The notes below the pieces were generated by a model, which worked only from the letters and a program-made list of their open reading frames with translations, was not told where the DNA came from and did no database searches. The position numbers and the translations under genes were made by a program. This document shows positions 1,679 through 6,868 of a stretch of DNA of 64,000 nucleotides, in pieces (within the stretch, counting starts at the first letter, position 1; each line of letters begins with the position of its first letter). The DNA comes from a virus: IMG/VR virus record IMGVR_UViG_3300046779_000879, positions 99,643 to 163,642 of that record; one strand, 5' to 3'.

Positions 1679-2991
1679 TTAATGTCCTTACTAGCATCAG
1701 CTACATCTTTATCATCACGTAGTTCTACAAAAATTGGAAGAAATAAACTCTCTTCACCTTGTTTGTTTTTAATTCTAGTATTATACTTCACTGCAACGAT
1801 TTTGTCAAGTATTTCTTGTTTGATGTGCCACAAGTTGATTCGATGTTCGTCATTCAAGCCAGAGCCAACAGATACCTTTACAACTCCATCTGACGATTCG
1901 CAAATTATTGCACCGAGCATTCCTGCATACTTACCAGATCCTTCTTCAACTGCAACAATCTTAAGATCGCATTCCAATTCACCTTTGAATTTAATCTGGT
2001 GCTTTGCACGCTTGTCTTCCCAAACACCTGAACCATCTTTGAGAATGATACCTTCATGCCCCAAAGACAAATACTCTTGAAACATTTCTTGTGCTTCTTC
2101 GATTGTTTGCACGATCTTGCTGGAAACTAACCAGACTTTTTTATTTTTAATACTTTGTTTCTGAACCAGTTGTTCTAAACTAGAAAATCGTTTTGAGTAT
2201 GGAACTGGACAATGCCCATCTGTAAAGTAAGCATAAGGAATAACATCCCATACAGAAGCATGAACCATTGCAGCTTCTTCAGCTGAGATTGTACCCTTGT
2301 TTGCTTTGTTTAGAATACCATTACCTGTCTGACGATCCGCAAACTGGATATCATCTGGAAACATAACAAGCAACTCACCATCAAATACGCAATCTACTTC
2401 TCCTGCCATTGCGATAAATTGTTCATCTAGATTACCCAACAGCTGAATCTCTTTACCATTGCGACTACGATATTCAACCTTACCATCACGAACAATTGCA
2501 TTAAATCGCATACCATCCATCTTCATCTGAGCATAGGCTGGGAATTTAATTTTGTCAATCAGCTTCTGTTCAAACTGTGAGCAAAGCATCACAGGATATT
2601 CTCTAATTAGACCAGACCAAACTGCATTGGCAGTTGATACTTGAACACCACAATCAAGACTTTTGTCAATGATTCTTTCAATGACCTTTGCGTCATCTGG
2701 ATCTAGAGATGAAAGAAGATTGCGTAAGAATTCAATTGCAGCATTTCCTGTTACTTCTCTACTTGAAAGACTATACAGTTGCTGCATGGCAAATCCAAGA
2801 GTCATCGTATTGAATTTTGGATCTCGAGTGTATGCTGGAATCTTACGCTGATAGAACTGAGTGAATGGACATAGTGCCAAACGAACAACCTCACGCAAAA
2901 TCTCATTGTCAGCATATTTTTCCAACTGCTCGATCTTGTAGTTACGTGATGGGTTTGCAGCAAGAGTGTTTAGGAAGGCATTAATATTCAT
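1675..2991 (-). CDS. gp30: ATP-dependent DNA ligase
   Basis: Motif I KMDGMR, VFDGEL, EGIILK, C-terminal LFLPIFVELRDDK. Confidence 0.95.
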   Translation of the reverse strand: MNINAFLNTLAANPSRNYKIEQLEKYADNEILREVVRLALCPFTQFYQRKIPAYTRDPKFNTMTLGFAMQQLYSLSSREVTGNAAIEFLRNLLSSLDPDDAKVIERIIDKSLDCGVQVSTANAVWSGLIREYPVMLCSQFEQKLIDKIKFPAYAQMKMDGMRFNAIVRDGKVEYRSRNGKEIQLLGNLDEQFIAMAGEVDCVFDGELLVMFPDDIQFADRQTGNGILNKANKGTISAEEAAMVHASVWDVIPYAYFTDGHCPVPYSKRFSSLEQLVQKQSIKNKKVWLVSSKIVQTIEEAQEMFQEYLSLGHEGIILKDGSGVWEDKRAKHQIKFKGELECDLKIVAVEEGSGKYAGMLGAIICESSDGVVKVSVGSGLNDEHRINLWHIKQEILDKIVAVKYNTRIKNKQGEESLFLPIFVELRDDKDVADASKDIK

Positions 2992-4909: not shown

Positions 4910-5040
4910 TTGCATTCCCCATACTTCGCCATTAATGCTTGTGCTTCTTTATGTTTACCATTTCTGGCGAGGTTTGCTGCTGCTTTTGCGTAACCTAAAC
5001 CCTTTAGGCAGATATAAACTTTGCGGAAAAACGATTTCAT
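4906..5040 (-). CDS. Small protein (44 aa)
   Basis: MKSFFRKVYICLKGLGYAKAAANLARNGKHKEAQALMAKYGECK; TAATG overlap with the hsp20 stop, GAGGAG SD. Confidence 0.6.
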   Translation of the reverse strand: MKSFFRKVYICLKGLGYAKAAANLARNGKHKEAQALMAKYGECK

Positions 5041-5516
5041 TATTTCTCCTCAGTCAATAACTGCTTCTCACCTGTTGACTTAACTGCGATTTTCTTTGGT
5101 TTCTTTGCTTCTGGAATTAAACGCTCCAAAGCAATTTTTAGCATACCATTAAAAATCTCGGCATCTTTAACTTCTACTTCGTCATTCAATACGAATGAAC
5201 GAGTGAAAGCACGATTAGCGATACCTTTGAACAAGAAGTTATCTTCTTGGTCTTCAGTTTTAATATTACCACGGACAACTAATTTACCACCATCAATTTC
5301 AATATCAATATCTTGCTGAGCAAAACCTGCAACAGCAATCTCAATGGTATAATGGTTTTCGTCATTCTTGCGAATGTTGTATGGTGGATAGTTTGGAATA
5401 TTTTTTGTTACATCATCATGTAGTTTTTGAAGAGTTTTAAACTGTTCATCAAAACCAACAAAGAATTTATCCAAGTCTTTAGTTCCCCAGAATGTAGGGA
5501 TGAAATTGTTTGTCAT
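5040..5516 (-). CDS. hsp20: Small heat shock protein Hsp20 (IbpA-like)
   Basis: NYPPYNI, IEIAVAGF, FKGIANRAFTRSF, NGMLKI. Confidence 0.95.
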   Translation of the reverse strand: MTNNFIPTFWGTKDLDKFFVGFDEQFKTLQKLHDDVTKNIPNYPPYNIRKNDENHYTIEIAVAGFAQQDIDIEIDGGKLVVRGNIKTEDQEDNFLFKGIANRAFTRSFVLNDEVEVKDAEIFNGMLKIALERLIPEAKKPKKIAVKSTGEKQLLTEEK

Positions 5517-5525
5517 GTTATCTCC

Positions 5526-5711
5526 TTACTTAACTACAATAGCTGTGAAGAAATCATTAGTAGATTTCGCTACAGTTTTTGCGAAAGATGCTTGTGCATC
5601 AATATAAGTTTGGAGTTGTTTTGCGATCTTTTCGTCTTTAACAAATGTCTTAACGAATTGAGTCTTTACACCAGAAATGGTGTCGATGGATGTATTTACT
5701 GCTTGTAACAT
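5526..5711 (-). CDS. Small helical hypothetical protein (phasin-like amphipathic pattern, uncertain)
   Basis: 61 aa with AGGAGA SD; first gene of the hsp20 transcript. Confidence 0.65.
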   Translation of the reverse strand: MLQAVNTSIDTISGVKTQFVKTFVKDEKIAKQLQTYIDAQASFAKTVAKSTNDFFTAIVVK

Positions 5712-5900
5712 ATAGTTCTCCTATTAAGCGAGATTAAATAAAAACTCTATCCCAAATGGGCATAGAGGGTTTGCTGGTTACTGGTTCCAGCGACAGCTTA
5801 ACGCACTGTCAGCTTTATGCGATTCGTAACTTAGTGGTCCTAAGGTGAATTCTTGGTAGTGATTGAATAGGTTACCAGCCTATCTTCCCATCCCTGAGAA
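5712..5900 (-). ncRNA. Candidate structured RNA / 5' leader of the hsp20 operon
   Basis: Six stem-loops in ~190 nt of non-coding DNA directly after a late-type promoter (CATAAATA, 5902-5909); see findings. Confidence 0.55.
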
Positions 5901-5904
5901 TTAT

Positions 5905-6075
5905 TTATGCTGCTGGCGATTGAGCAGACTTTTCTACTTCAGCCATTGCTGCAACTTGCGGTTCGCCTTGTTGCTTAATCTTGTTGATAACAGAGACTAC
6001 TTCTTCAAATGGATGTTTACCCAATACACGAAGAATCATATTACACTCTTCAATACTCAATTCAAGTTTAATCAT
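5905..6075 (-). CDS. Small hypothetical protein (56 aa)
   Basis: MIKLELSIEECNMILRVLGKHPFEEVVSVINKIKQQGEPQ...; ATGA overlap with the regA stop. Confidence 0.7.
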   Translation of the reverse strand: MIKLELSIEECNMILRVLGKHPFEEVVSVINKIKQQGEPQVAAMAEVEKSAQSPAA

Positions 6076-6491
6076 TTTGCTTTCTTTCCTATGTTATATT
6101 TTGGAACTAATTCCCACTGGTCTTTTTCTTTATAAGAGACCACCTTAATTTGAGATAGTGACGCTTTCTGTTCTGCTCTAACATTATCTAGGATCTTAAG
6201 TAGATCCCAGTCTTGTAGCAGACCAGCGATAGCATTTCGTCTCTCGATATCTCCGCTAGTGATGTTTGATTCTTTACCATCAAGAGCGAATAATTCTTTA
6301 AAGTGCACAATGAAATACCTACCCTGTTTATGAAGGATATGGCATGATTGGTACAATGTGTTTTCTTTTCTGGAAGCGATGCCGATGCGAGTTAGGGTCT
6401 CACGGACTTTTAGAAAGTTGTCTGGTTCTGGCAGACTCACTTCAAGCATCGACTCTGGTGTCCAGTCGTAATAAATCATCTCTACAGTCAT
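6072..6491 (-). CDS. regA: Translational repressor RegA
   Basis: FLKVRETLTRIGIASRK, LYQSCHILHKQGRYFIVHFKELFALDG. Confidence 0.95.
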   Translation of the reverse strand: MTVEMIYYDWTPESMLEVSLPEPDNFLKVRETLTRIGIASRKENTLYQSCHILHKQGRYFIVHFKELFALDGKESNITSGDIERRNAIAGLLQDWDLLKILDNVRAEQKASLSQIKVVSYKEKDQWELVPKYNIGKKAK

Positions 6492-6868
6492 TATTTTCCA
6501 CCTTTGTATAATTTTTCTTTTATCATATTCAACTGTTCTTCAGATAAGATGCTTAGTGCTTCATTAGCCTTCTCGGAAGAATATCCAAAGTACTCTTTTA
6601 CAAGAGTAAGATCCATCGTATCGGCTTCTTTCTTATGCCATTTCGAGAATCTCTTTTTCTTTGATATAGTATTTAGGAAAAAGGAAAACTGCCAGTCCTT
6701 GGGTATGCTCGAGTTACGATTCATCTCGTTTGCATATAGGACTGTATCGGGGAAATACGACAAACCACGATTGACTAGGAATGGTGTATAATCTTTGTCA
6801 GCCTGTGGTTCTTCGAATAGGTTTTTCTTTGTAAGATTGATTGCGTTGATAAAGTCAAAAGGTGTCAT
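6491..6868 (-). CDS. gp62: Clamp loader small subunit
   Basis: YTPFLVNRGLSYFPDTVLYANEMN, KKRFSKW, VKEYFGYS. Confidence 0.92.
   Translation of the reverse strand: MTPFDFINAINLTKKNLFEEPQADKDYTPFLVNRGLSYFPDTVLYANEMNRNSSIPKDWQFSFFLNTISKKKRFSKWHKKEADTMDLTLVKEYFGYSSEKANEALSILSEEQLNMIKEKLYKGGK

Follow-up and report, generated by a model that had tools for sequence, protein, structure and literature searches.

A non-coding gap of 193 nt on the minus strand (5904–5712) of an uncultured, T4-like lake phage encodes a conserved, highly structured and pseudoknotted RNA that lies in front of the gene of an IbpA-like small heat-shock protein. Positions refer to the window, the whole 64,000-nt stretch of phage DNA that was analysed. 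The RNA is interpreted, at about even odds (probability roughly 0.5), as the cis-acting leader of a message for a small ORF and hsp20, built in modular fashion from a ROSE-type translational thermometer and phage-specific pseudoknot modules. A large clade of uncultured T4-like freshwater phages carries the putative ROSE-type thermometer together with an ibpA-type chaperone gene, which suggests that phages may time or dose the holdase by temperature or proteostasis state during infection. The domain upstream of the thermometer hairpin is the more interesting part, as a widespread, strongly co-varying triple-pseudoknot RNA without a catalogued relative. Being short (85–170 nt), it is easily synthesised, and it is a concrete candidate either for a new module of RNA-protein or RNA-ligand recognition or for a structure that blocks decay.

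Genomic setting and conservation of the fold

The gap extends from the stop codon of a 56-aa ORF (5907–5905) to the ATG of a 61-aa ORF (5711). A first-pass annotation of the locus had named regA and hsp20 as the flanking genes, and both assignments are borne out by profile matches (PF01818 and PF00011, respectively); the best NCBIfam models for the hsp20 product are IbpA and IbpB. The 61-aa ORF matched no family in Pfam, PHROGs or NCBIfam, and the label 'phasin-like' for it is unsupported. A peptide encoded across the core of the RNA was considered and rejected. Downstream of its TAG, the FTLGPLS... frame lacks a start codon, the length differences of 1 and 2 nt in the linker and the H4 loop are not multiples of three, and the substitutions in the helices are compensatory.

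A candidate late-promoter-like box is found at the upstream edge of the gap (Table 1). Relatives have TATAAATA or CTAAATA at the same place, ending 6–12 nt before P1 or just before H0, and the TATAAATA box at 6–12 nt before P1 recurs in about 24 unique contexts. The predicted transcript start was placed by the spacing of T4 late promoters. Because the box lies just before P1 or H0, a stem begins within a few nucleotides of this predicted late start. About half of the relatives have no promoter-like box, and the core there comes directly after a stop codon.

Table 1. Features of the leader and the genes behind it, with their positions in the window
Feature	Position	Strand	Basis
Late-promoter-like box CATAAATA (candidate)	5902..5909	-	sequence; overlaps 56-aa ORF stop codon
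H0, degenerate (UCUC / GGGA, loop AGGGAU)	5886..5899	-	comparison by eye
PK1, H-type pseudoknot	5854..5884	-	seven sequence versions in relatives
P1 + H2	5821..5850	-	covariation (P1), invariance (H2)
PK2 + H3	5792..5821	-	covariation, mutual information
PK3 + H4	5773..5813	-	mutual-information scan, pair counts
H5, stable hairpin + U-run	5736..5767	-	folding, comparison
H6, SD-masking hairpin	5717..5733	-	folding, -4.1 kcal/mol
61-aa ORF, first gene behind leader	5526..5711	-	ORF list; no family assigned
hsp20, IbpA-like small heat-shock protein	5040..5516	-	PF00011 at 6.6e-20

All six hairpins that the first-pass annotation had drawn are present at their positions and are recovered by ViennaRNA, with a minimum free energy of -49.4 kcal/mol (z = -2.1) that is modest on its own. 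The comparison of relatives, more than 100 of them unique and all taken from IMG/VR contigs, confirms the fold. In an unbiased set of 25 relatives, retrieved via the downstream protein and not via the RNA, 98% of the cells pair, and the covariation score amounts to 0.31, compared with 0.13 for shuffles (0/500) and no more than 0.15 for slid partners. Across 91 unique cores, 98.6% of the cells are paired and 14 of the 26 pairs change on both sides. RNAalifold independently predicts the same nested helices. Compensatory changes are found among the more than 100 unique relatives in P1, H3, H4, H5 and the CGCA/TGCG pseudoknot, so that the covariation proposed as a check in the first-pass annotation is present, including TGCG/CGCA; it is absent for CTGGT/ACCAG. 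The RNA is read from the minus strand, since G-U pairs of that strand are kept (e.g., G5813-U5780 in 82/91).

Architecture of the pseudoknotted domain

The core comprises 85 nt (5854–5770), in which the loops of two neighbouring hairpins hold a single linker strand through PK2 and PK3, and contains about 30 invariant loop and junction nucleotides. It is entered through P1 (AUUC 5850–5847 with GAAU 5825–5822), which encloses H2 between the conserved junctions ACC and UUAC and has pair counts of A-U 60 / C-G 30 and U-A 85 / A-U 3 / U-G 3. H2 (CUUAG 5844–5840, loop GACCA, CUAAG 5834–5830) is present as originally drawn and never co-varies; it is invariant, apart from two mismatches that L008 and L017 show. 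In classes B and C the 5' half is built in another way, with H2 absent and ACCUUA retained in a hairpin loop. The P1/H2 module is found again in another phage type (L091, L134), as part of a different RNA.

PK2 pairs the linker CGC (5821–5819) with GCG (5804–5802) in the loop of H3. This is the CGCA/TGCG pseudoknot that had been suspected from the letters of the source phage, and two of its three pairs change on both sides (C-G 77 / U-A 13; U-A 75 / C-G 9). The fourth pair of that proposal, A5818-U5805, was rejected, as U5805 co-varies with A5798 instead. H3 (GACAG 5810–5806 with CUGUC 5796–5792) is extended by U5805-A5798, next to the invariant bulge G5797; both-side changes occur in five of the six pairs of H3 and in four of the five of H4. 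The 54–61 pair of the PK2/H3 module was found by mutual information. The linker continues with an invariant UAAA (5817–5814) and then with GCU (5813–5811), which forms PK3 with AGU (5782–5780) inside the loop of H4. H4 itself consists of GCUGG (5791–5787) and CCAGC (5777–5773), and its loop ends in an invariant GUAA. PK3, discovered by a mutual-information scan, is paired in 91/91 unique sequences with three pair types at one position (U-A 46 / G-C 38 / A-U 7), and in the protein-retrieved set with 10/9/3. Together with stem 2 of PK1, it adds to the pairings of the first-pass list.

PK1, located 5' of the core, is an H-type pseudoknot. Its stem 1 (GAUAGG 5884–5879 with CCUAUU 5871–5866) corresponds to the hairpin first drawn as H1, its stem 2 is formed by the loop UGGUA (5877–5873) and UACCA (5858–5854), and its loop 3 is A-rich (5865–5859). 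Both stems are kept in seven sequence versions among the relatives (versions include GGUAGU/ACUACC, UUGAUGG/CCAUCAA, GACGG/CCGUC, GGCUGU/ACAGCC, GGGGG/CCCCC and UGGAGG/CCUCCA), and the case for PK1 is based on these co-varying versions and not on pseudoknot-finder scores. A generic pseudoknot finder was discarded as a test, with 34% of the shuffles scoring too, and a position-constrained finder gave 27% versus 9% in shuffles. The kissing interaction proposed between the H1 and H4 loops did not survive the comparison. The two loops are complementary in the source phage and, over 5 bp, in three relatives (L049, L082 and L065), but the other PK1-bearing relatives retain no more than 2–4 bp, and both loops have other co-varying partners, that of the H1 loop being UACCA 5858–5854.

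The remaining parts of the 5' region are variable. PK1, H0 and a module X are optional or transposed among the relatives: PK1 is missing from many and sits downstream of the core in class D. In L045 and L055 only H5 and H6 are retained. By eye, H0 appears in relatives as UCCC-N6-8-GGGA with an invariant GGGAUGGGA. In the source phage, a 4-nt deletion with respect to L049 brings H0 very close to the promoter box, and its 5' arm may here be outside the transcript.

Terminal hairpins and the link to hsp20

The core is followed by H5, CUCUAU(G)CCC-AUUU-GGGAUAGAG (5767–5745), and the tract UUUUUAUUU (5744–5736), which together are terminator-like in the source phage. In 89 unique relatives the sequence of the outer stem differs and its pairing stays, whereas the apical part is conserved (GCC-UUCG-GGG in 59). 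At least five U within 8 nt after the hairpin are found in 47/89 of these relatives; the U-run is strong in the source phage. A simple terminator scanner did not call H5 in the source window. H5 (-7 to -15 kcal/mol, with a co-varying stem) precedes H6 in 89/89 unique segments.

H6 is formed by UCUC(G)CU (5733–5727), a UAAU loop and AGGAGA (5722–5717), with G5729 bulged in the minimum-free-energy structure. It had been drawn before as TCTC/GAGA masking the Shine-Dalgarno (SD) sequence; the masking of the SD, AGGAG, holds, and the helix is better drawn as UCUC(G)CU/AGGAGA. In ROSE elements, U(U/C)GCU pairs imperfectly with the SD in the 3'-proximal hairpin, with a bulged G (PMC3669281). This signature is present in 103/103 unique leaders (CUCGCU in 102, CUUGCU in one), 2–9 nt before AGGAG, and the E. 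coli ibpA leader contains an identical UCUCGCU...AGGAG. The loop of H6 is UAAU in 78 of the 103, GAAA in eight and longer in 17. The predicted unpaired probability of the SD increases from about 0.05 to 0.14 between 5 and 42 °C, a gradual rise that is neither switch-like nor diagnostic, so that no switch is evident in the natural temperature range of the phage.

Hsp20 (IbpA-like) is the next product behind 100 of 101 unique leaders, either directly or after an ORF of 61–78 aa: 56 leaders lead to the Hsp20 homologue directly and 44 to a homologue of the 61-aa ORF and then hsp20. Each complete genome has one copy of the leader, which is absent from the other genes of the phage. An RNA thermometer controlling a phage heat-shock operon, as the first-pass annotation had offered among its readings, would fit the ROSE signature in all leaders and the position of hsp20 behind nearly all of them. 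In four relatives no hsp20 lies behind the core. Their core, located between the regA stop codon and a hairpin with a sigma70-like promoter, is 95–99% identical, compared with 71–88% at synonymous sites of regA. The core is thus kept under selection there, which implies a role for which hsp20 is dispensable in cis.

The phage RNA resembles bacterial ROSE elements such as that of E. coli ibpA and the short two-hairpin element of Pseudomonas ibpA (PMC3669281) in its place in the leader of an IbpA-type sHSP gene, in the pairing of U(U/C)GCU with a bulged G against the SD, and in the more stable, GC-rich hairpin just upstream (H5). In contrast to the bacterial elements, it is phage-borne and does not score with the Rfam models ROSE, ROSE_2 and ROSE_3, even at E <= 10 (801, 141 and 81 nt searched). 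Its thermometer hairpin is shorter (5–6 bp, 4-nt loop) with a temperature response that is predicted, its first cistron is the small ORF and not hsp20 in 44% of the leaders, and 85–170 nt of pseudoknotted modules stand in front of the hairpin, beyond the usual two to four hairpins.

No named family was recognised in the first-pass annotation, and the Rfam searches, one of the whole window at the gathering score and three relaxed ones, agree: they returned chance fragments (snoRNA, E > 1; PutA, Xist) and no known ribozyme class. Among GenBank phages, blastn matched regA only, and in HTVC008M and Melnitz regA is not followed by hsp20 and the core model finds no match. An exact 18-nt pattern of the core, which misses more diverged copies, gave four chance matches in unrelated sequence of bacterial species genomes and no full core. 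The main text of a catalogue of 8,495 IMG/VR candidate RNAs (PMC10690425) mentions neither hsp20 nor thermometers, and a search of the literature on phage ROSE or hsp20 leader RNAs yielded no ROSE-type thermometer in a phage.

Proposed mechanism and alternative functions

In the proposed leader mechanism, the ribosome-binding site would be hidden at low temperature by the anti-SD strand of H6, and warming, or the loss of a bound repressor, would open the hairpin and allow translation. H5 would act as the heat-stable 'hairpin I' of short ROSE elements and may also terminate part of the transcripts in the source phage. PK1 and the 85-nt core would be the phage-specific addition, most likely a compact and self-contained 5' domain that resists nucleases, makes the message more stable and keeps the weak thermometer hairpin from misfolding. 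The invariant loops may dock a protein, for which the IbpA-like Hsp20 is the obvious candidate. The roughly 30 invariant loop and junction nucleotides argue against a mere stabiliser or insulator, for which they would be superfluous, and the position of the core, which in about half of the relatives is not at the transcript 5' end, argues against a 5'-end domain.

5'-terminal stem-loops stabilise mRNAs, as in the E. coli ompA leader, and C(UUCG)G hairpins occur in intercistronic regions of T4; neither is known to need conserved loop sequences or tertiary pairing. The phage RNA is similar to these elements in the stem near its predicted transcript start and in the UUCG-type loop that caps H5, and differs from them in the invariant nucleotides of its core. 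The pseudoknot in the leader of T4 gene 32 is an autoregulatory operator, associated with control of translation and with a message of unusual stability. Like it, the phage RNA has an H-type pseudoknot close to the 5' end of the mRNA leader in a T4-type phage; it differs in gene and sequence and in its three pseudoknots, of which two have a linker strand in common.

It is possible, albeit unlikely, that the leader is a feedback operator, in which the phage IbpA-like Hsp20, or else the host IbpA, binds specifically to the core and the ROSE hairpin is the point of repression. Free chaperone would bind the leader and repress it, and chaperone occupied on aggregates would release it. The precedent is E. 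coli IbpA, which represses its own translation and that of ibpB via the structured 5' UTR (PMC10474464, PMC10410725). IbpA binds its own 5' UTR through R93 and Y34, and the repression strictly requires R93 and an aromatic amino acid at position 34 and needs K98 as well (PMC10474464). The phage Hsp20 is 44% identical to IbpA, and its Y43, R102 and R106 align with Y34, R93 and R97; the invariant loop nucleotides imply a sequence-specific partner, and the core is nearly always linked to hsp20. As in the IbpA autoregulation described by Miwa and Taguchi, a structured sHSP leader is thus combined with an IbpA-like protein in which Y34 and R93, the residues that bind RNA, are conserved. By contrast, the phage protein has S107 in place of K98 and is a candidate RNA binder as judged from its residues, and the E. 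coli UTR has plain hairpins, no pseudoknots and no similarity to the phage core. Moreover, IbpA seems to recognise structured RNA and not a sequence (discussion of PMC10474464), and the core persists at the four loci without adjacent hsp20, where a copy elsewhere or the host IbpA could serve. With the phage leader, it can be tested in a natural setting whether phage chaperones, too, exert the feedback on structured leaders that among sHSPs is so far known from gamma-proteobacterial IbpA.

A function of the core (5854–5770) that is independent of the ROSE hairpin and hsp20 is likewise doubtful. The core would then represent a new functional RNA class, either a sensor of a stress ligand or sHSP, or a self-cleaving or processing ribozyme; such a function would explain both the selection in the hsp20-less phages and the recurrence of the P1/H2 module. 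A related reading, in which the core with or without PK1 works on its own and is placed before hsp20 mainly by synteny, seems rather improbable. The RNA could be an sRNA that runs from the late promoter to H5 (ending at about 5736, about 165 nt), an RNA derived from the 3' UTR of the regA operon, or an element whose self-cleavage or processing parts the regA message from that of hsp20. Such forms would agree with the purifying selection on the core in the four hsp20-less relatives, with P1/H2 in the RNA of another phage type, and with the late-promoter-like box and the strong terminator-like H5 of the source window. Small ribozymes have double-pseudoknot folds with invariant junctions, which the core resembles. 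However, hsp20 lies behind the core in all but one of the 101 unique leaders and is missing from one lineage only, H5 is a poor terminator in half of the cases and is read through in an RNA-library contig, and no known ribozyme family matches.

A riboswitch or attenuator, in which the core would be an aptamer for a small molecule or ion that decides on termination at H5 or on the SD hairpin, is quite improbable: the compact, covariation-supported architecture with two pseudoknots and about 30 invariant unpaired nucleotides, followed in the source phage by terminator-like and SD-masking hairpins, would suit it, but by eye there is no conserved alternative pairing of the core with H5 or H6, the linkers between these parts differ in both length and sequence, a U-tract follows only 47/89 of the H5 hairpins, classes B and C rebuild the 5' half, and the motif is tied to one gene family, a chaperone and not a metabolic pathway, being absent from other phage genes and having only chance matches of its 18-nt motif in bacterial genomes. 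Pseudoknot aptamers (SAM-II, preQ1-II, fluoride) and double-pseudoknot ribozymes (HDV-like, twister) are small, with A-rich crossing strands and invariant junctions. The phage core shares their small size, pseudoknots, A-rich crossing strands and invariant junction nucleotides; it differs in the order of its helices, and Rfam gives no match.

Transcription of the region was examined in metatranscriptomes, where 20 RNA runs share 7–18% of the words. In four studies, RNA-library contigs span the leader and continue across H5 into the ORF, which is weak evidence of transcription, as these are contigs that may include DNA. One contig ends at 5772 and alignments end at 5781, in both cases where strains diverge.

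Locus and anatomy of the leader

The leader belongs to a minus-strand gene series of a 163.6-kb IMG/VR virus record that reads gp45, gp44, clamp-loader small subunit, regA, a 56-aa ORF, the non-coding gap, a 61-aa ORF and hsp20. By regA, the closest cultured phages are Pelagibacter phage HTVC008M, Methylophilales phage Melnitz and T4-like cyanophages; the genomes of HTVC008M and Melnitz were both examined, and contain neither the RNA nor an hsp20 unit behind regA.

Features of the leader and its surroundings (window coordinates unless a relative locus, L followed by a number, is named)
Feature	Position	Strand	Remarks
regA	6491-6072	minus	PF01818
56-aa ORF	6075-5905	minus	between regA and leader
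Leader gap, 193 nt	5904-5712	minus	
CATAAATA box	5909-5902	minus	
H0, degenerate hairpin	5899-5886	minus	
PK1 stem GAUAGG/CCUAUU	5884-5866	minus	H1 of the first-pass annotation
PK1 second helix	5877-5873 / 5858-5854	minus	H1 loop UGGUA with UACCA
P1 AUUC/GAAU	5850-5847 / 5825-5822	minus	encloses H2
H2	5844-5830	minus	inside P1
Linker CGC-A-UAAA-GCU	5821-5811	minus	
H3	5810-5792	minus	
H4	5791-5773	minus	
H5	5767-5745	minus	then U-run 5744-5736
H6	5733-5717	minus	SD within
AUG of 61-aa ORF	5711	minus	
61-aa ORF	5711-5526	minus	first cistron; MLQA.NTSIDTISG.KTQFVKTFV...
hsp20	5516-5040	minus	PF00011; top NCBIfam models IbpA and IbpB
PqqA-like peptide gene	L023, about 2470-2545		also L028, L029, L034, L042-L046, L067, L072, L097, L125, L126, L138, L142, L146, L161, L170, L174
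P1/H2-like module	L091:7838-7897	minus	
P1/H2-like module	L134:9279-9355	plus	

The 56-aa ORF is found in most relatives, with a conserved motif (GKHPFEEV...KIKQQGEPQ) and an Ala/Pro-rich tail, and matches no family in Pfam or PHROG. The 61-aa ORF, whose homologues measure 74-78 aa in most relatives, is likewise without a family in Pfam, NCBIfam and PHROGs. Directly 5' of the leader, many related phages carry a gene of about 23 codons with its own SD, for a peptide resembling PqqA (MWTKP..EMR.GFE.TMYV.NR), that stops 3-5 nt ahead of P1, the place taken in the window by the 56-aa ORF. Of the words sampled from window 5000-6500, 7-18% recur in each of twenty freshwater, lake and estuary metatranscriptome runs (14 studies). 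In four of these runs, contigs from relatives both near and more remote extend over regA, the core, H5-H6, the small ORF and hsp20.

A conserved RNA with three pseudoknots

All stems listed in the first-pass annotation were found in the sequence and in the minimum free energy fold. The energy of the leader (-49.4 kcal/mol, z = -2.1; opposite strand, z = -1.6) is merely suggestive when taken alone, and it is the comparison with relatives that settles the question. Searching with the 61-aa protein encoded downstream, which involves no selection on the RNA, yielded 55 loci, the upstream regions of most of which display 72-91% identity. In the alignment of 25 unique sequences of class A, one of the classes (A-D) of the RNA, 98% of the cells are paired, with a covariation score of 0.31 as compared with 0.13 after shuffling (0/500) and at most 0.15 with the partners slid. 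The invariant H2 region, used as a scan pattern, revealed more than 119 additional viral contigs. An alignment of 91 unique cores, the 85-nt segment (5854-5770) that includes P1 to H4, displays 98.6% pairing with changes on both sides in 14 of 26 pairs, and RNAalifold independently predicts identical nested helices. The G-U pairs (G5813-U5780, for instance, occurs in 82 of the 91 sequences) assign the RNA to the minus strand, as had been proposed. The structured RNA noticed in the gap is thus real and widespread.

The pseudoknot first proposed between CGCA of the linker and the H3 loop holds for three of its four nucleotides: the linker CGC pairs with the loop GCG (5804-5802; PK2) and exchanges C-G for U-A at two positions, but the pair A5818-U5805 does not form part of it. 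A mutual-information scan pairs U5805 with A5798 instead, which extends H3 and leaves the invariant G5797 bulged. The scan also found a contact absent from the original list, between U5811, directly 5' of H3, and A5782, ahead of GUAA in the H4 loop (U-A 46, G-C 38 and A-U 7 of 91). Together with C5812-G5781 and G5813-U5780, the latter replaced by A-U in class D, it constitutes a 3-bp helix, PK3, which forms in all 91 sequences and in the protein-retrieved set too. The loops of two neighbouring hairpins, probably stacked on each other, therefore clamp a single linker strand. By contrast, the suggested kissing of the H1 and H4 loops amounts to just 2-5 bp in relatives and is unconserved. The partner of the H1 loop is a strand located 8-11 nt beyond H1 on its 3' side, and together they make an H-type pseudoknot, PK1, kept in seven versions (UGGUA/UACCA, GGUAGU/ACUACC, UUGAUGG/CCAUCAA, GACGG/CCGUC, GGCUGU/ACAGCC, GGGGG/CCCCC and UGGAGG/CCUCCA), all with an A-rich third loop.

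PK1, H0 and another pseudoknot, module X (in L038, L068, L162 and class D), can be absent or moved to another place. Module X is located upstream of PK1 in L038, L068 and L162 and downstream of the core in L159, L060 and L103; it comprises a stem, (C/A)GUC...GAC(G/U), and a loop strand, CCUAG/CUUGG, that pairs with downstream CUAGG/CCAAG, with compensatory changes between lineages in both helices. In classes B (L026, L033, L051) and C (L038, L042, L050), H2 is missing and ACCUUA sits in the loop of a short hairpin that co-varies; in class C this loop is complementary to the H4 loop UAAGGU. L045 and L055 retain H5 and H6 alone. In about 24 unique contexts, a TATAAATA box ends 6-12 nt ahead of P1; in others it is found just ahead of H0. 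As a putative promoter, with the usual spacing between box and transcript start of T4 late promoters, it would place a stem within a few nucleotides of the transcript start. In about 46 contexts the box is absent, and 3-5 nt separate the core from the stop of the ORF that precedes it.

A ROSE-type hairpin ahead of an IbpA-type hsp20

ROSE-like thermometers are defined by a U(U/C)GCU element that pairs imperfectly with the SD, and so blocks it, in the hairpin nearest the 3' end of a small heat-shock gene leader, with at least one hairpin upstream (PMC3669281); in short Pseudomonas ROSE elements, hairpin I is stable and GC-rich (PMC3669281). Among 103 unique complete leaders, the hexamer 5' of the SD is CUCGCU in 102 and CUUGCU in one, followed by a loop of 4 nt (UAAU in 78, GAAA in 8) or longer (17), AGGAG, and a start codon 5-9 nt on. 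H6 folds through C-G, U-A, C-G, a bulged G, C-G and U-A, to which the window phage adds U5733-A5717 (-4.1 kcal/mol). The E. coli ibpA leader (NC_000913.3) ends in UUCUCGCU-GAUUUC-AGGAGCUAUUGAUUAUG, and its UCUCGCU and AGGAG are identical to those of the window. H5 is the counterpart of the stable hairpin upstream. In 89 unique relatives the outer stem of H5 varies yet stays paired, and its tip is conserved (GCC-UUCG-GGG in 59). Because the Rfam ROSE models give the region no score, we use "ROSE-like" by the defining motif and do not claim membership by covariance model.

The 3' module is a known type of thermometer in a phage-borne form, and this likeness would explain the thermometer half of the RNA. 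The 5' core has no Rfam match, consistent with the earlier failure to assign a named family, although the IMG/VR bulk catalogue of candidate RNAs might include it as an unnamed entry; a literature search for ROSE elements in phages, or for leader RNAs of hsp20, found no paper.

The tie between the leader and an IbpA-type hsp20 is almost obligatory. Of 101 unique leaders having enough downstream sequence, 56 have directly behind them an Hsp20 homologue (39-74% identical to that of the window) and 44 a homologue of the small ORF, with hsp20 within the next 200-270 nt in all 44; one ORF is truncated. E. coli IbpA and the phage Hsp20 share 44% identity. Complete genomes contain one copy of the core. 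Searched exactly across bacteria, at one genome per species, an 18-nt motif of the core returned four chance matches and the full core in none. The initial reading of a thermometer controlling a heat-shock operon is thereby supported in its SD hairpin and its gene, but the predicted SD exposure rises only gradually with temperature.

Cores without hsp20 and the proposed role of the 5' domain

In four class-D loci (L160:1264-1400, L169, L073 and L144), which lack H5, H6 and hsp20, the core lies between the regA stop and a short hairpin with the sigma70-like promoter (TTGCC..N..TGTTATAAT) of the next gene, which is either a metallophosphoesterase gene or a small ORF together with dCMP deaminase. 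Among themselves these cores reach 95-99% identity, compared with 71-88% at regA third codon positions; the 18-nt search pattern fixes 17 of 86 core positions, and the others are still 94-98% identical. The core is therefore under selection even where hsp20 is missing in cis, and these loci count against a pure hsp20-leader reading.

By analogy with bacterial ibpA and hspA leaders, H6 would act as a temperature gate on translation initiation of the first cistron. H5 would aid its folding and may end some transcripts in the window phage; metatranscriptome contigs that span H5 weakly suggest read-through. The 5' domain would form a compact structure that shields and insulates the message, and may also dock a protein. 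The many invariant nucleotides in its loops, and the copies without hsp20, speak for a role of the core beyond passive stabilisation.

The most concrete alternative is feedback of the phage Hsp20 on its own leader. R93 and Y34 mediate the binding of E. coli IbpA to its own 5' UTR (PMC10474464); the phage protein keeps both, as R102 and Y43, but K98 of IbpA is missing. A ligand-sensing riboswitch is possible, but inspection by eye showed no conserved switching element, and this and the association with a single gene disfavour one of the classical type. A separate small RNA or a ribozyme is also possible. The original interpretation is partly supported: it stands for the thermometer-type leader and the CGC/GCG pseudoknot and falls for the loop-loop kissing.

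Phages of a different type (L091, L134) have a P1/H2-like module (CCACC-UUAGGACCGCUAAGG-NAC-GGUGG) at the start of another non-coding RNA that is conserved and has no match in Rfam. Further elements of that RNA are GCGGCUGCUGCC, a hairpin that co-varies and has AUCGCUAC as its loop, and ACAAAGUGAGCA.
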